Source: Klebsiella phage KP13-16
Direction: 5' to 3' (one strand)
Sequence record: OP617741.1
DNA length: 64,000 bases
The translations under genes were made by a program, and so were the position numbers. The notes beneath the pieces were generated by a model that ran no database searches, was not told the origin of the DNA, and was given only the letters and a program-made list of their open reading frames with translations. This document shows positions 14,738-21,532 of the stretch, one piece after another. Numbering within the stretch: the first letter of the stretch is position 1; each line of letters starts with the position of its first letter.

Positions 14738-14760
14738 GAAGCCAGCATTAACTGGCTTAA
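14738..14760 (-). terminator. terminator/stem-loop between yqeY-like gene and nrdD
   Basis: AAGCCAG-ttaatgc-TGGCTT hairpin followed by U-rich tract on minus strand. Confidence 0.45.
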
Positions 14761-14805: not shown

Positions 14806-15213
14806 TTAAATCAGATAAGTTTGAAGAATAGTCTTTGCTAATTGATTATCTACTGTTTTGCCAGCAGCTTTAGCAACCATGTTAATTTTACCCATGAAAC
14901 TCATAGTGATTTTATCACCATTCTGTACCGCAGTATCCAAGAAATCACGAATCTCTTCTTCACTCAACTGTGCAGGAAGATAACTTTCCATAAAAGCAAT
15001 TTCTTCTTCATACTGTTTCAGTTGTGCTTCATGACCTTCAAGACTTGCACGAGTAGATTTTACAGTAGACTTAATCAAGGCAATAGCATCTTCATCAGTT
15101 GAATTTTTATCTTGTGACAATTTTCCTAAAAGAAAGGTTAGAGTAGCAACCTTTTCTTTATCACCGGATTTACGAAAAGCAAGTTGGTCTTGTTTCATTT
15201 TCTCAATAATCAT
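14806..15213 (-). CDS. GatB/YqeY-domain protein
   Basis: helical ~135 aa; MKQDQLAFRKSGDKEKVATLTFLLGKL resembles YqeY N-terminus; start trimmed. Confidence 0.55.
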   Translation of the reverse strand: MIIEKMKQDQLAFRKSGDKEKVATLTFLLGKLSQDKNSTDEDAIALIKSTVKSTRASLEGHEAQLKQYEEEIAFMESYLPAQLSEEEIRDFLDTAVQNGDKITMSFMGKINMVAKAAGKTVDNQLAKTILQTYLI

Positions 15214-15845
15214 TAATATTCTCCTATTCCACAATAAAGAGTTTCTCTTGTATTATTTAAATCTTCAGAAACTCTATTAATTTCTTTTTGTAAGATATCC
15301 TTATACTGAGGATATTTTTCTATCAAAGTTAAACCTTGATTTATATACAACATTTGCCAAGCTCTATGTGCTTCAACAGGATCTGTGAAACCATGTATGG
15401 CAATATCATGAAACCTAGCCCTATATCGAGGTACTTTCTGATATTTATTTTTCTGTTCAGAAACTCCCAATGGTAAATTATTTTTAGAGTATCTTTTTAT
15501 AATATAATTATTTAAATCTTTACCTACAAAACCACAGGTGCTTGGAGAGTATATTTTACTAACCCCAGATAAGAGATCCTTGTCCAGTTCCTTTCCTTCC
15601 CAATCTTGGGTTTCCATCCAGGCACGAAAATTACCAAATGTCAACCATTCTTCACAAACACTACAACCTTTATAAGTAGGAAATCTTCTTTGGTAATTTT
15701 CACTATAACAACGCCTTAGCATATTCGTCCAACGATCATAATATGGATCTCGCCAAAATACAACTTCTTTACCATTCATACGTTTACTTTTTTGAGTTAT
15801 ATCTTCTAGATCATTGTATCCCTTACCAAAAAGTAATTTATTCAT
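15213..15845 (-). CDS. AP2-domain DNA-binding protein (homing-endonuclease-associated type), paralog of 20239-20901
   Basis: LPLGVS...KYQKVPRYRARF...GFTDPVEAHRAW = AP2 domain; N-terminal W..RW..M..RC..C..CEEW block shared with paralog. Confidence 0.5.
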   Translation of the reverse strand: MNKLLFGKGYNDLEDITQKSKRMNGKEVVFWRDPYYDRWTNMLRRCYSENYQRRFPTYKGCSVCEEWLTFGNFRAWMETQDWEGKELDKDLLSGVSKIYSPSTCGFVGKDLNNYIIKRYSKNNLPLGVSEQKNKYQKVPRYRARFHDIAIHGFTDPVEAHRAWQMLYINQGLTLIEKYPQYKDILQKEINRVSEDLNNTRETLYCGIGEY

Positions 15846-17134
15846 TACAATTCTATCTCAAGTAAGTAATCAAGTCTAACTTGACTCAGGTCAAAGACTA
15901 CAATCTCATCATTTCTCACCCCAGAGTATCCAGCCTTAGCCCAATAAGATTGGTATCCTTTTGGAGGGCGTTGACTTGTTGGTCCTGTTGGGGTATAAGC
16001 ATTTCCAACAGCCACTGAAACTAGAAACATGTAAACTTTTCCATTCCCCTGACCACCACCCGTATAATACATGTTATCACAATATTGGAGACTTTTTGAA
16101 GATTGATTTGCGAAATACAATCCTGTTGAGAACATGGCCCCTGCCTTAACACCAGGACTATCTTTAGGCATCATTAACCCTTTACAGAAAATAGATAACA
16201 AATTAGCTACACGTGTTCCGTGCCACAGTTCATGAACATTACCATACTCTGTGATAGCTTTATCAAATGGTGCTTGCTGATTTCCAAGATTAATTTTATA
16301 GATATTCTTAACTTTAGAACCCATGATGCGACCGCCGTGTTGGGCATTTTTACTTTCATTGTAGTAATTAACAATACGATCAATTGTAGCAGAATCTTCA
16401 ACATGAGAGATACCAAAATTAAAGATTTTTTCTACTTCAACTTCTTCTTTAGGTTTATCTTCCTGATTCTTTTTAAGTTCTTCAATAAGGTCTAATGTTT
16501 CCAGAAGTGCTTTACAGATTTCACGTTGTTCGTCAATGTTTTTGTGACTAAACAGCAAGTGACGTTTATCACGTGTAGTTGCAACTTTATTAGGAATAAG
16601 AACAAAATAAGAATCATTTAAAGTTAAGATCTCATCTTCACCTTTACCACTCTTTTCATATTCATCCAAAAGGGATTCAATATTACCAAGATGGATCATT
16701 GCTTCTTCCACAGCAGCTTTCTTTACAACTCCTAAAGGAGTCTTAAACAGACCATCTTTTTCATCATATTTAATGTTAGTAGAACTGGTGATATTATGGA
16801 TGTTTGCTTTAGCAATTGCTTGAATAAGATTACGACTTGTGTCGTCTTTACAATCAATTTGCTTAAGTGCAATGTCTACTACGTTAACTTTTTGAGTCAA
16901 CCCAGTTTCACCAGAGACAGCTTCTAGTTGTGCTTCTTTATAACCTTTCTTGATTTTAGATGCAACAAGACTGTCAAACTTCTTTTTACCACCAGAGTAG
17001 GAGGTAGTTTGAACCCCGCCACCTACCCGACCAAAACGAACTGCAATATTTCCAACGTCATCTAAGGTTGCTTCATAGAATTTATTGTTATTATTCTTTG
17101 AATCAAACATGATTAGCATTTTACTCTCAGACAT
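15845..17134 (-). CDS. poly(ADP-ribose) polymerase-like protein (WGR + PARP catalytic domain)
   Basis: N-terminal WGR (KFYEATL...RFGRVG); C-terminal PARP fold with H-Y-E triad context: LWHGTRVANLLSI..GL, GLYFANQSSKSLQYC, NDEIVVFDLSQVRLDYLLEI. Confidence 0.75.
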   Translation of the reverse strand: MSESKMLIMFDSKNNNNKFYEATLDDVGNIAVRFGRVGGGVQTTSYSGGKKKFDSLVASKIKKGYKEAQLEAVSGETGLTQKVNVVDIALKQIDCKDDTSRNLIQAIAKANIHNITSSTNIKYDEKDGLFKTPLGVVKKAAVEEAMIHLGNIESLLDEYEKSGKGEDEILTLNDSYFVLIPNKVATTRDKRHLLFSHKNIDEQREICKALLETLDLIEELKKNQEDKPKEEVEVEKIFNFGISHVEDSATIDRIVNYYNESKNAQHGGRIMGSKVKNIYKINLGNQQAPFDKAITEYGNVHELWHGTRVANLLSIFCKGLMMPKDSPGVKAGAMFSTGLYFANQSSKSLQYCDNMYYTGGGQGNGKVYMFLVSVAVGNAYTPTGPTSQRPPKGYQSYWAKAGYSGVRNDEIVVFDLSQVRLDYLLEIEL

Positions 17135-17149
17135 TTCACCCCCTGTTAA

Positions 17150-17175
17150 GTGAATAAAAGGGCTTTCGCCCTTAA
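17150..17175 (-). terminator. terminator hairpin upstream of PARP gene
   Basis: AAGGGC-tttc-GCCCTT hairpin; U-run on minus strand. Confidence 0.5.
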
Positions 17176-17609
17176 AGTTTTTCGAGAAGTTTCAACACAG
17201 CTTCTTTATCAAGAACAGTTGAACCGAGGAGTGCTTCAACCTCTTCAATTTGGAATACATCTCCAAGTTGGTGGGTATTGACTGGAGGACGGATCTTATC
17301 TTTGTGGTTCAGAAAAAGATCTTCTTCAAATCCATCTCGAACATATTTCCCTTTCAAATCTGTAATTTCAACAAGCTTAATCAACTTATGAAGTTTTTCA
17401 ACACGAAACTCAGGTGCTACTTTAGCTTCAACTTCTTCACGGAGGTCATCCAAAGAGCTTCGAACAGTATCAAGTTTCTCATAAACTTCTTCAAAGAAGC
17501 TAGAATCTAAAATATATTCCATATCTTTAAGAAACTCTTTGGGAGAGTTTTCAGCATACTCTTTAAGATCTTCAAACCAATCATTAATTTTATCAAACAG
17601 TGGATTCAT
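17172..17609 (-). CDS. hypothetical acidic helical protein (145 aa)
   Basis: ORF track. Confidence 0.35.
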   Translation of the reverse strand: MNPLFDKINDWFEDLKEYAENSPKEFLKDMEYILDSSFFEEVYEKLDTVRSSLDDLREEVEAKVAPEFRVEKLHKLIKLVEITDLKGKYVRDGFEEDLFLNHKDKIRPPVNTHQLGDVFQIEEVEALLGSTVLDKEAVLKLLEKL

Positions 17610-18775: not shown

Positions 18776-19705
18776 TCACTTCTTATCTCCACTTTTACTT
18801 TTCATAATAGAGCTTAAAGATACAAGCGGGGTTTTGGGTACAGGTTTCTTTCTAGGGACATAATTTTTGACAAATGGATTAAGATTTTTAGCAATCTCTG
18901 GGATGGACATTCCTAAGAGTTTGCTTGCTTCTACCATTTTTGATCCCACCTCTTTTCCTACAATTACCATGTTATCTTTAGTATAACCTTGGGTTTGGTC
19001 TAACAGGATAAAGACTTTTTGAGACAGTTCAATTGTCTCTCCTGTTAATTTGCACTTAGTTCCTGAAAACTTAGCTTTAAACTCTGCAAAACTAACTGTA
19101 AACTCTTTCTTTTCCGCAGAGGCATGTTTAGCCATATCAGAATAGTAAGAGGCAATGCGTACATCTGGGGCAATCTGTTTATCTGACATCTTCAGGACTC
19201 CTTGATCATTACGGGATAGTTCAATTTTTTGTGTTAAGACACCATTCAAGTTATCATAAAAATTTGTATAGTCAATATCTTTAAAATAATTTTTATAAAC
19301 ATTAGATTCAAATTTAATTAAATGGTTGTATTTATAAGATAAAAACTTTTTATACCCTGGTGTAACTTTCTCTTGAACCACTCTCAAGATTGCTTCAGAT
19401 GTTTCATTGATCCTTACTACTTGTACTTCGGTTTTGTCAAGAGCATAATCTTTTATTCTATTTACTGCTGCTGAAGTTAAACAAACATTCCCTCGTTCAT
19501 AACCGAGTTTATCATCTAAACGTTCAATGGATATCTTATGTTTATCCTCATCAAAGGTAACACCAGTATAATCACACTTACCGTCATTCCGTAAGAAAAG
19601 TACTTTCATATCTTCAAGGGTTAATTTGAAATCAATACCACGCTTCCTGGCATCTTTTTTCTTAGATTCAAAACGTTTTTTGAGTTCTTGTTCGTCTAAC
19701 TTCAT
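18776..19705 (-). CDS. HNH-family putative homing endonuclease
   Basis: GKCDYTGV...SIERLDDKLGYERGNVCLTSAAVNRIK resembles phage HNH (CxxCG...SxDRID..GY..NV...N..K) variant; extended C-terminal DNA-binding-like tail. Confidence 0.45.
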   Translation of the reverse strand: MKLDEQELKKRFESKKKDARKRGIDFKLTLEDMKVLFLRNDGKCDYTGVTFDEDKHKISIERLDDKLGYERGNVCLTSAAVNRIKDYALDKTEVQVVRINETSEAILRVVQEKVTPGYKKFLSYKYNHLIKFESNVYKNYFKDIDYTNFYDNLNGVLTQKIELSRNDQGVLKMSDKQIAPDVRIASYYSDMAKHASAEKKEFTVSFAEFKAKFSGTKCKLTGETIELSQKVFILLDQTQGYTKDNMVIVGKEVGSKMVEASKLLGMSIPEIAKNLNPFVKNYVPRKKPVPKTPLVSLSSIMKSKSGDKK

Positions 19706-19714
19706 ATAGACCTC

Positions 19715-20230
19715 TTATTTGATCACAGTGGCATTTTCAGGGATTTCAGCTTCATCAAGTACATAGATGGTAACATTGTACCCGGCTTCACACAATGTCT
19801 TTTTGATAATATCTTCAACAGAAGACCACTCTGCTCCTCCAAGACCTGCACCAAGTTTGGGAAGTCCAATTTTAAGATCCTGATTTTCAAAAAGCATTAG
19901 CTGTTTAGACATAGCTTTGAAAGAAGATTCAAGCTTATCTAAATCTGTATTTGGTTTTCCATCCTCACGTTTCCACCAACCCCACCGTCCGTATAAATTA
20001 TAAATACTTAAATTATACAATGGAGAATGGGCATATGAGAAATCTCCAAATTTTTTAGGGTCTCCTTTAATAGTTGAATCATCTGCAATAGCGACTTCCG
20101 GGAAAGCTTTATCTAAAAGTGGGGCAATCCCACGTTTACGTGCATTAAAACAGTTACATTGTTGTGCAATAACATTTACTTCTCCACTTTTTGCAGCCAA
20201 TAACAAATCCATCACTTTATATTTCAACAT
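19715..20230 (-). CDS. macro domain protein, TARG1/OARD1/DarG-like ADP-ribose hydrolase
   Basis: NVIAQQCNCFNARKRGIAPLL, LPKLGAGLGGAEWSSVEDII and C-terminal ITIYVL parallel TARG1 blocks AHCISEDCRMGAGIA, MPRIGCGLDRLQWENV, ITVYTL. Confidence 0.6.
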   Translation of the reverse strand: MLKYKVMDLLLAAKSGEVNVIAQQCNCFNARKRGIAPLLDKAFPEVAIADDSTIKGDPKKFGDFSYAHSPLYNLSIYNLYGRWGWWKREDGKPNTDLDKLESSFKAMSKQLMLFENQDLKIGLPKLGAGLGGAEWSSVEDIIKKTLCEAGYNVTIYVLDEAEIPENATVIK

Positions 20231-20238
20231 ATTACCCC

Positions 20239-20901
20239 CTATAATTTTAATGTCTCTCTATTTAAACTTATATCTTCTTTTATATCTTGGATCCTATCAA
20301 GTAAGGCAGTTTCAACAACCTTATTAAAGTGTGCAGATTCTTTATATTTTTGTAAGCTTTCCTTGATTGCAATAATTTTATAATCTTGCCACTGTTTATG
20401 AGCAAGGTCTGGTGAGTTATGATAACCTAGATAAACAATCTTACCAGATACATGACAATAAGCTTGGAACCTATCCCTATGATGAGGCTTTTTCTTCTTT
20501 TTAAGACTTACCCCTAGTGGGAGGTGTCCTCTTGCAGATCTACTATCTGTTAATAGGCAGTTAATATAGTTCGGAACCATAACGCAAGTCTCTTTACTAT
20601 AAAGCTTATTACCTTTAATTAATATATCCTTATCAATGCATAAATTATCAAAATCCTTAGATATGGCCCAAGCTTTAAAATTTGAAAAGTATTTCCACTC
20701 TTCACTTACAGTACAACCTTCATAGACAAAATAATATGGATCTTTTTGTTTTAAATTATAACATCTTCTAAGAATGTCTTTCCATCGGCTATATATCGGA
20801 CAGAGCCAAATTTGCTTCCATTTACCATCTTCAAATCTATTTATAGAGACAGGGTCTACACTATCATTAATGCCATAGTTATGTACAAGTTTTTGTTTCA
20901 A
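20239..20901 (-). CDS. AP2-domain DNA-binding protein, paralog of 15213-15845
   Basis: LPLGVSLKKKKKPHHRDRFQAY...LGYHNSPDLAHKQW AP2 domain; shared N-terminal W..RW..ILRRCY..C..EEW block. Confidence 0.5.
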   Translation of the reverse strand: MKQKLVHNYGINDSVDPVSINRFEDGKWKQIWLCPIYSRWKDILRRCYNLKQKDPYYFVYEGCTVSEEWKYFSNFKAWAISKDFDNLCIDKDILIKGNKLYSKETCVMVPNYINCLLTDSRSARGHLPLGVSLKKKKKPHHRDRFQAYCHVSGKIVYLGYHNSPDLAHKQWQDYKIIAIKESLQKYKESAHFNKVVETALLDRIQDIKEDISLNRETLKL

Positions 20902-21299: not shown

Positions 21300-21532
21300 G
21301 GTGCCTCTTCTAATTGGGAATGGGAGATGCCCATCATATCTGCCAGATCGTCTTTTGTCAACAATTTTCTTTCAAACAAATTTGTAACCAGCAAAACAAA
21401 CATCTCACCTACGTTATTATTAGATTGCTCTAATAGTAACTGCTCAAGGTTAAAAGTTTTAGTATCACTATAATCCTCATTCGTAAGGAAGAAATGCTTT
21501 TGTTGTGGGTTTAGCATAGGTCTTTTCCTCAA
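21293..21532 (-). CDS. hypothetical protein (79 aa)
   Basis: ORF track. Confidence 0.3.
   Translation of the reverse strand: MRKRPMLNPQQKHFFLTNEDYSDTKTFNLEQLLLEQSNNNVGEMFVLLVTNLFERKLLTKDDLADMMGISHSQLEEAPW

Follow-up and report, generated by a model that had tools for sequence, protein, structure and literature searches.

The 64,000-nucleotide stretch of Klebsiella phage KP13-16 analyzed here (record OP617741.1; hereafter the window) carries on its minus strand, at 15845..17134, a gene for a 429-residue protein that is a complete WGR-HD-ART module as in the poly(ADP-ribose) polymerases PARP1, PARP2, and PARP3, resembling PARP2 minus its N-terminal tail. Judging from its residues, the gene very probably encodes a functional enzyme, and conservation points to gating by a nick or 5'-phosphate as the most likely mode of control. 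The reading that we favor, with a little better than even confidence, is that of a catalytically competent ADP-ribosyltransferase (ART) of the PARP1/2/3 clade, consisting of the WGR-HD-ART core, that is activated by DNA breaks and probably makes polymer. The product exactly matches UYL04435.1 of KP13-16, labeled 'hypothetical protein' in the record, and the G+C content of the open reading frame (ORF), ~35%, is that of its surroundings. A gene of this kind is already known: an ortholog has been annotated as a PARP, and phage PARPs were catalogued between 2014 and 2022. An earlier note on this DNA, based on the letters alone and referred to here as the original prediction, had proposed a phage-encoded minimal PARP composed of a WGR and a catalytic domain. 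The phage origin of the gene was borne out, the genome being that of KP13-16, a relative of Klebsiella phage FBKp34.

Pfam searches identified three domains above their curated cutoffs: WGR at residues 6–69 (E 3.3e-7, 30.8 bits, cutoff 22), PARP_reg at residues 102–227 (E 2.2e-8, 34.7 bits, cutoff 26.8), and the PARP catalytic domain at residues 249–399 (E 3.6e-23, 82.5 bits, cutoff 26.7). The Pfam check proposed with the original prediction was passed by both of its domains; the two-domain minimality was not upheld, since the HD/PARP_reg domain had been overlooked. Similarly, the WGR domain is present as predicted while the tryptophan of the supposedly clear WGR motif is not, being Phe here and Tyr in most relatives. 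The motifs that had been noted were all found, namely RFGRVG (F34-G35-R36), LWHGT (H305), GLYFANQSS (Y340), and NDEIVVFD...YLLEIEL (E410). The phage family PHROG 23333 covers residues 6–428 (E 5.2e-52), an end-to-end match that, together with the length, places the protein among the compact prokaryotic/phage PARPs of ~400–450 amino acids.

A search of PDB with the single sequence matched human PARP1 at 1e-17, and similarity of this strength in Pfam, PHROG, and PDB greatly exceeds what chance would produce. No PDB match was obtained with the single-sequence WGR alone or with WGR and HD, for which a profile search was required. The profile was derived from alignment A2, comprising the window protein and 58 homologs of 40–79% identity (together the 59 homologs below). 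With this profile, human PARP2 was the top PDB sequence (E 1.6e-39), followed by PARP1 WGR-CAT (1.9e-37), and the aligned part reached from the WGR domain as far as the C-terminal strand. An AlphaFold2 model derived from A2 (mean predicted local distance difference test score, pLDDT, 86.3; predicted template modeling score 0.75) placed the HD helices at residues 139–225. The best Foldseek matches of the model in PDB were PARP1 WGR-CAT on a DNA double-strand break (7s6h, 8g0h, 4dqy; E 1e-25 to 1e-24, template modeling score 0.61–0.66), and further matches were PARP2 on DNA (7aeo, 6x0l). Human PARP2 and PARP1 are the best match over the whole length by both profile and fold, yet identity to human PARPs is only ~20–23%. 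In contrast to the human enzymes, the phage protein lacks an N-terminal tail, zinc fingers, and a BRCT domain, and its WGR domain is shorter than that of PARP2, with ~20 residues absent before the conserved Tyr.

The catalytic site was compared with that of PARP1 by phmmer alignment, with V687 of the catalytic PARP1 fragment as the starting point of the numbering. H305, Y340, and E410 align with H862, Y896, and E988, the H-Y-E triad of PARP, and further correspondences are H305-G306 with H862-G863, K347-S348 with K903-S904, and Y351 with Y907. All of these residues are invariant in the 59 homologs. The catalytic Glu and His are not substituted as they would be in a pseudo-PARP, and the match is not confined to another ART clade, PARP2 and PARP1 being best by profile and fold; these were the two outcomes that the original prediction had named as speaking against it. 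Carriage of an inactive or dispensable passenger (a pseudo-PARP) spread by horizontal transfer is very improbable and already largely refuted. The gene is indeed accessory, being missing from most Stephanstirmvirinae, and the region around it is a mosaic that includes homing endonucleases. However, the catalytic and NAD+ (nicotinamide adenine dinucleotide)-site residues are all invariant, the gene remained intact after its 3' third was replaced by a diverged allele, and it is conserved across its clade down to ~50% identity. The ratio of nonsynonymous to synonymous substitution rates (dN/dS) is 0.09–0.15, that is, 0.145 against FBKp34 (dS 0.30) and 0.094 against Klebsiella phage 05F01, and the PARP gene is under purifying selection.

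The replaced 3' third emerged from a sliding identity profile against FBKp34. The two phages are 97–100% identical throughout the region, and this holds for the first ~850 nt of PARP as well; in the final ~380 nt (16228..15848), where the ART core is encoded, identity drops to ~76%, and at YqeY it is 97–100% again. The diverged tract directly abuts an HNH homing-endonuclease gene whose start and the stop codon of PARP overlap (TAATG). This gene and a second HNH gene upstream, 33% identical to each other, flank the segment from a macrodomain gene to PARP. Judged from this arrangement, the diverged tract looks like a homing-endonuclease co-conversion tract. The chimeric PARP gene retains every catalytic residue.

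The residues of the PARP2 WGR domain that touch a nick have been listed, and N127A, R153A, and Y201F abolish activation by DNA (Obaji et al. 2018, PMC6294510). These contacts were placed on the window protein by hmmalign with the A2 profile, and 8/10 positions were identical. N17, K18, Y20, R36, K60, and Y65, corresponding to PARP2 N129, K130, Y132, R153, K183, and Y201, are invariant in the 59 homologs, and Y65 is the equivalent of the 5'-phosphate-sensing Tyr. N15 (N127) is the same residue in 58/59 homologs and Q42 (Q159) in 42/59. F34 replaces W151 conservatively (Y/F/W in 58/59 homologs), and the contact made by K179 is lost, its position being occupied by L56. N16, at the position of N128, is variable among the homologs, and G35 of the WGR motif is likewise invariant. 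In the HD, L149 and L210, both invariant, correspond to L713 and L768 of PARP1, hydrophobic-core positions whose mutation deregulates that enzyme. The protein shows three features of PARP clade 1: a WGR domain with DNA-break contact residues, a PARP_reg/HD directly N-terminal of the ART, and an ART fold with the H-Y-E triad and NAD+-site residues. A nick- or 5'-phosphate-gated enzyme is predicted because both the WGR contact residues and the HD core are conserved.

This regulation pattern also bears on a role in host takeover like that of T4 Alt, ModA, and ModB, in which RNA polymerase or translation factors would be ADP-ribosylated early and DNA binding would serve only for localization. The T4 enzymes are, as is proposed here, phage NAD+-dependent ADP-ribosyltransferases active in infection, and the PARP gene lies among early-type genes, with an Srd-like/HNH 'anti-sigma factor' gene nearby and a sigma-70-like promoter ahead of it. 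Such a role has moreover been proposed for jumbo-phage PARPs, which were suggested to act like the T4 ARTs but to add polymers (Iyer et al. 2021). However, Alt, ModA, and ModB are members of the R-S-E, cholera-toxin-like clade, are mono-ADP-ribosylating, have no WGR or HD, and share homology with the phage PARP only at the level of the ART superfamily. The R-S-E motif was not found in the window protein, whose triad is H-Y-E, and neither Pfam nor PHROG gave a match to Alt/Mod families. The conserved autoinhibitory HD and DNA-break contacts favor break-gated over constitutive activity, and a target is not known. We consider host takeover of this kind rather unlikely.

In the mechanism that we propose for a break-activated enzyme, the protein would be made in infected Klebsiella from a sigma-70-type promoter by host RNA polymerase, along with the macrodomain protein. 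Its WGR domain would dock on nicks or 5'-phosphorylated ends, as provided by replication or recombination intermediates, degraded host DNA, or phage DNA cut by nucleases. Docking would unfold the autoinhibitory HD, and the ART would then use NAD+ to ADP-ribosylate the enzyme itself, nearby proteins, or the DNA end. The product would probably be a chain, because Pyl1 of the fungus Yarrowia lipolytica, which ranks with the closest named relatives, has the N-D-E motif as well and is a proven polymerase. The macrodomain could reverse the mark, and a nearby NadR-type gene could replenish NAD+. ADP-ribosylation of targets, or NAD+ use, by the phage PARP, which the original prediction had likewise proposed, is what we infer here. 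Candidate purposes, neither of them established, are the protection or repair of phage DNA ends and the reprogramming of host proteins at DNA.

A number of observations weigh against this reading. With respect to DNA sensing, the K179 equivalent is gone, W151 is a Phe, and the protein has neither a basic N-terminal tail nor a zinc finger for finding DNA; Pyl1 is DNA-independent in vitro, indicating that a need for DNA is not universal in the subfamily (PMC12412787). With respect to polymer synthesis, the position of PARP1 Y986 is taken by N408, and this Asn is invariant in A2. PARP4 chains carry the name mono-ADP-ribosyltransferase in PDB, showing that H-Y-E is no proof of polymer formation. 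PARP3 is a mono-ADP-ribosyltransferase despite its H-Y-E triad, and PARP1 Y986 is implicated in chain elongation. With respect to the genomic setting, promoter-like sites overall do not exceed shuffled sequence, which concerns the shared promoter. The macrodomain family occurs in 662 phage records compared to 15 for PARP, and a macrodomain lies near PARP in 16/144 loci. FBKp34 has no NadR part and carries unrelated genes in its place, and a jackhmmer survey found NAD+ genes near PARP in only ~7/144 loci. The PARG family was not among the recurrent PARP neighbors, though no PARG-specific search was made. Finally, full-text literature searches found no experimental work on any phage PARP.

Several of these points would be accounted for by a PARP3-like mono-transferase acting on a DNA end (terminal phosphates) or on one protein site, which would cap phage or host ends and form no poly(ADP-ribose) (PAR) chains. 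The retained WGR contacts to nick and 5'-phosphate, the invariant Asn at the Y986 position, and the mono-transferase activity of some H-Y-E enzymes are all compatible with it. PARP2 is reported to modify DNA besides proteins (PMC8190142), and the predicted transcription unit includes a macrodomain putatively of the DarG/TARG1 class, to which erasers of DNA-ADP-ribose belong. In contrast, the N-D-E motif is common to the fungal Pyl1-type proteins, and Pyl1 makes poly(ADP-ribose). Profile searches score PARP2 and PARP1 above PARP3 and PARP4, although the solved chains differ in length. PAR is also made in vitro by two bacterial PARPs, HaPARP of Herpetosiphon aurantiacus and CdPARP of Clostridioides difficile CD160, of which HaPARP requires DNA. 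Compared by description, both have the WGR-PARP_reg-PARP order of the phage protein and a YGR/FGR variant of the WGR motif, as does the phage protein (FGR). Unlike the gene of a lytic enterobacterial phage, theirs are chromosomal and paired with PARG. By the account of a 2021 review, no more than two bacterial PARPs had undergone in vitro assay. On balance, we regard a mono-transferase as unlikely and a polymer-making enzyme as the better account.

The relationship to fungal PARPs is close. A search of 5.8 billion proteins yielded fungal matches at 44–58% identity, roughly double the value for human PARPs, from Yarrowia spp., Smittium, Coemansia, Dipsacomyces, Hesseltinella, Trichomonascus, and Linderina (P0032, P0033, P0042-P0044, P0048, P0050, P0051, P0053, P0056, and P0092); for the Yarrowia proteins, 61% of the query was aligned, at 57% identity. 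Pyl1 of Y. lipolytica is auto-PARylating, binds double-stranded DNA, and modifies Ku70/80 at telomeres, and the word 'horizontal' does not occur in the paper describing it (PMC12412787). The Pyl1-type proteins share motifs with the phage protein in WGR, HD, and ART, including N-D-E. They differ in being eukaryotic nuclear proteins, and the Yarrowia members have a low-complexity/coiled-coil insertion of ~200–240 residues inside the HD that is absent in the phage protein. In a first neighbor-joining tree rooted on human PARP1, the fungal clade appeared as the sister of the window's clade. This exclusive grouping received 3% bootstrap and was dropped. Instead, the fungal clade was monophyletic (99%) and nested at least four nodes deep (100%), and its sister group contained the window sequence in 72% and any member of the window's clade in 78% of replicates. 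Based on these trees, the nesting suggests a possible horizontal transfer between the phage/bacterial pool and fungi, and the tie to Pyl1 bears on the movement of PARPs among viruses, bacteria, and eukaryotes.

Table 1. Features of the window around the PARP gene, and a family of PARP-associated proteins in other loci
Feature	Position	Strand	Basis or remark
PARP gene, 429 amino acids	15845..17134	minus	ATG-to-stop ORF; three Pfam domains; PHROG 23333; database match
WGR domain, residues 6-69	16928..17119	minus	Pfam WGR; predicted DNA nick/5'-phosphate sensor
HD/PARP_reg domain, residues 102-227	16454..16831	minus	Pfam PARP_reg, AlphaFold2 helices; predicted autoinhibitory
ART domain, residues 249-429, with H305-Y340-E410	15848..16390	minus	Pfam PARP; alignment to PARP1
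Putative recombinant 3' tract of PARP	15848..16228	minus	sliding identity profile against FBKp34
145-residue acidic protein (UYL04436.1)	17172..17609	minus	candidate clade-specific PARP partner, regulator, or substrate
HNH homing-endonuclease gene	15213..15845	minus	PHROG 953, E 1e-61; replaces FBKp34 gp112
HNH endonuclease	20239..20901	minus	PHROG 953
HNH/Srd-like protein ('anti-sigma factor')	18776..19705	minus	
Macrodomain protein (putative DarG/TARG1-like class)	19715..20230	minus	PDB, PADLOC, PHROG 335
NadR-type NMN (nicotinamide mononucleotide) adenylyltransferase/ribosylnicotinamide kinase (residues 1-308) fused to nucleotidyltransferase-like part, 533 amino acids	21755..23356	minus	
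Sigma-70-like promoter candidate, TTGACA-17-TATGAT, 11/12	21333..21361	minus	consensus scan
YqeY	14806..15234	minus	
Terminator-like hairpin after YqeY	14739..14758	minus	
NrdD, 715 amino acids	12601..14748	minus	
Family of ~200-230 amino acids downstream of PARP, examples	L008 11349-12011; L009 1517-2143; L018 3587-4279; L027 11319-11906; L017 11296-11922; L079 11339-12244		24 more viral loci

The genes around PARP form a minus-strand run that comprises, in order, the NadR-type gene, an ORF of 127 amino acids, an HNH endonuclease gene, the macrodomain gene, the HNH/Srd-like gene, three small ORFs, PARP, the second HNH endonuclease gene, YqeY, and NrdD. The promoter candidate is the best sigma-70-like site on its strand and, with the terminator-like hairpin, brackets the genes from the 127-residue ORF to YqeY; a promoter and a terminator are also recorded for FBKp34 at the corresponding sites. 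Co-transcription of the macrodomain gene and PARP from an early-type promoter is a reasonable guess.

The macrodomain protein matched BT1257 (1e-6), SCO6735 (2e-4), and TARG1 (0.015) in PDB and the macro part of PADLOC DarG (3.2e-8), whereas the match to Pfam Macro (E 0.026) was below the cutoff. The view of this protein as a dedicated PARP eraser is weakened by the record and locus counts given above. It may erase the PARP mark or may equally, by analogy with phage NADARs, be an orphan DarG-like counter-defense enzyme. A counter-defense role has been demonstrated for phage NADARs; no match to the NADAR (DUF1768) of FBKp34 (gp012) was found in the window.

The NadR-type ORF, 4.6 kb upstream of PARP, matched 9x6f (1.8e-50) and NadR 1lw7 (1e-29) in PDB, TIGR01526 (1.5e-48), and PHROG 3462 and 388. 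Its C-terminal part corresponds to FBKp34 gp101 ('putative thioredoxin'; PHROG 388, nucleotidyltransferase), and the ORF could represent a real fusion or give two products via an internal start. NAD+ genes also accompany PARP elsewhere. In a relative of 55% identity (L144, 7014-9905), genes for Nudix, a NadR-like protein, and PnuC, a transporter of nicotinamide riboside/NMN, lie directly upstream of PARP; an ORF with a Cas12f1-like TNB domain (TnpB-like) was observed just before them. NAD synthase (NadE) is encoded near PARP in L145, and PncA, NMNAT, and NAPRTase (PncB) within 6 kb of PARP in the bacterial locus L003. The 'orotate phosphoribosyltransferase' beside PARP in 05F01 was dismissed in this respect, as it is a ComF-like PRTase_3 and not an evident NAD+ enzyme. 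A general linkage of PARP to NAD+ salvage was rejected on the basis of the survey count and of FBKp34, which has no NadR; the occasional association is suggestive, not general.

These genes are also relevant to the possibility that NAD+ consumption is the main effect of the enzyme, resulting in shutdown of host metabolism, superinfection exclusion, or interference with NAD+-dependent immunity. Activated PARPs are strong NAD+ consumers, and NAD+ is a central battleground in phage defense. However, a NadR-type gene in the same phage, and NadR/PnuC, NadE, or PncA/PncB near PARP in relatives, fit supply. Dedicated NADases would be simpler, and an enzyme of that kind would have no need of the conserved WGR and HD regulation. 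We hold NAD+ depletion to be quite improbable as the principal function.

The ORF 38 nt upstream of PARP encodes an acidic protein of 145 residues for which no match was obtained in Pfam, PHROG, or NCBIfam, and no fold match although the AlphaFold2 model reached a pLDDT of 88.6. Of 50,697 phage records, just those of the two Klebsiella phages with PARP, FBKp34 and 05F01, contained it. In 8/9 clade genomes examined, homologs are encoded on the same strand 15–530 nt upstream of PARP. Among 5.8 billion proteins, the family comprised only 12 clusters, all on phage-like contigs, three of which agree in length with contigs that bear PARP. A module of ~80 residues at the C terminus makes up the conserved part and carries an invariant IRPP motif; the family diverges faster than PARP, with 38% identity where PARP has 78%. 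Between this gene and PARP (17140..17172, minus strand), a GGGC-GAAA-GCCC hairpin followed by TTTTATT occurs just before a strong Shine-Dalgarno-like AGGGGG, and the hairpin may be an attenuator or an RNA-stabilizing element. Clustering of the flanks of 78 IMG/VR loci revealed in 30 of them a second, unannotated family of ~200–230 residues, usually on the same strand 4–800 nt downstream of PARP, with the N-terminal motif F-[ST]-AFD-[VI]-TK-x-LR. Searches of Pfam and PHROG gave no match for this family, which does not occur in the window. Homology between the two families was rejected (hhalign probability 0.2%).

Taking these findings together, PARP and the 145-residue protein might constitute a break-triggered ADP-ribosylation module that marks, bridges, or shields phage DNA ends against RecBCD, restriction, or CRISPR, with a DarG-like macrodomain as eraser and with the fungal Pyl1-type PARPs having been acquired from the phage/bacterial lineage. 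We put this combined proposal forward tentatively and think it doubtful as a whole; if true, the module would represent poly(ADP-ribose) signaling inside a bacterial cell.

At the nucleotide level, the window shares 94% identity with Klebsiella phage vB_KpM_FBKp34 (Stephanstirmvirinae). Gp111 of that phage (QQV91759.1) is an ortholog of 94% amino acid identity; it carries the annotation 'poly [ADP-ribose] polymerase', and its record notes the three domains found here. The gene is placed as in the window, between the gene of the 145-residue protein and those of YqeY and NrdD; the window gene differs by its diverged 3' third, followed by an HNH endonuclease where FBKp34 has gp112. The text of the FBKp34 paper does not discuss gp111. 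The 05F01 ortholog (78% identity) is annotated 'ADP-ribosylation'. PARP genes were previously described in Aeromonas phage Aeh1 and Cellulophaga phage phi4:1 (Perina et al. 2014), and the PART/PARP family is among the most frequent viral ART families (Iyer et al. 2022).

The rarity assumed in the original prediction held at every scale examined. By tblastn, the protein was found in 15/50,697 phage records, namely the 2 Klebsiella phages, Xanthomonas phages XacN1 and Xoo-sp13, Stenotrophomonas phages CM1 and RAS14, Cellulophaga phages phi4:1/phi17:2 and variants, and two uncultured jumbo phages. The 78 IMG/VR PARP loci are mostly on contigs of 60–570 kb. Among 185,579 bacterial and archaeal species genomes, 57 loci with identities of at most 40% were detected, in Armatimonadota, Acidobacteriota, Planctomycetota, mycobacteria, some megaplasmids, and few others, and no relative in Enterobacteriaceae. 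A phmmer search of 1.84 billion cluster representatives gave 309 clusters at E≤1e-30, nearly all of 400–450 amino acids. Since the relatives are rare and sporadic and none belongs to Enterobacteriaceae, the gene was not taken from the Klebsiella host, and the low bacterial identities likewise speak against a host origin. Assignment to a defense system was rejected as well, as PADLOC gave no significant match for PARP, only WGR_XIII (E 0.0039, 13.7 bits). Near-identical PARP genes (P0277, P0279) occur on contigs of ~70–140 kb labeled Klebsiella pneumoniae, and a 99%-identical fragment (P0009) in a metagenome-assembled genome labeled 'Actinobacteria bacterium'; these are probably phage contigs inside bacterial assemblies or bins.

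In eukaryotes, PARP1-3 serve as central sensors of DNA damage and are drug targets; partners of the HPF1 or PARG kind are not known in the phage setting. The carriers FBKp34, 05F01, and KP13-16 are isolated, culturable Klebsiella phages, the last of which has been used in a therapy study (PMC10241881). Phage genetics and a well-studied host make this a tractable system in which break-activated ADP-ribosylation could be studied in a cell without chromatin, HPF1, or PARG, and the conserved neighbor genes are concrete candidates for partners.

Besides the genes discussed above, the window holds tellurite-resistance-type genes (two of TerD, TerC, TelA, and a vWA-TerF-like gene), class I and class III ribonucleotide reductases, PhoH, an RNA ligase, DUF4326, and DUF4236. 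NrdD has 1005 residues in FBKp34 (L001 11277-14294) versus 715 in the window, and FBKp34 residues 179–475 are without a window counterpart, which suggests an intein or inserted element in the FBKp34 protein.

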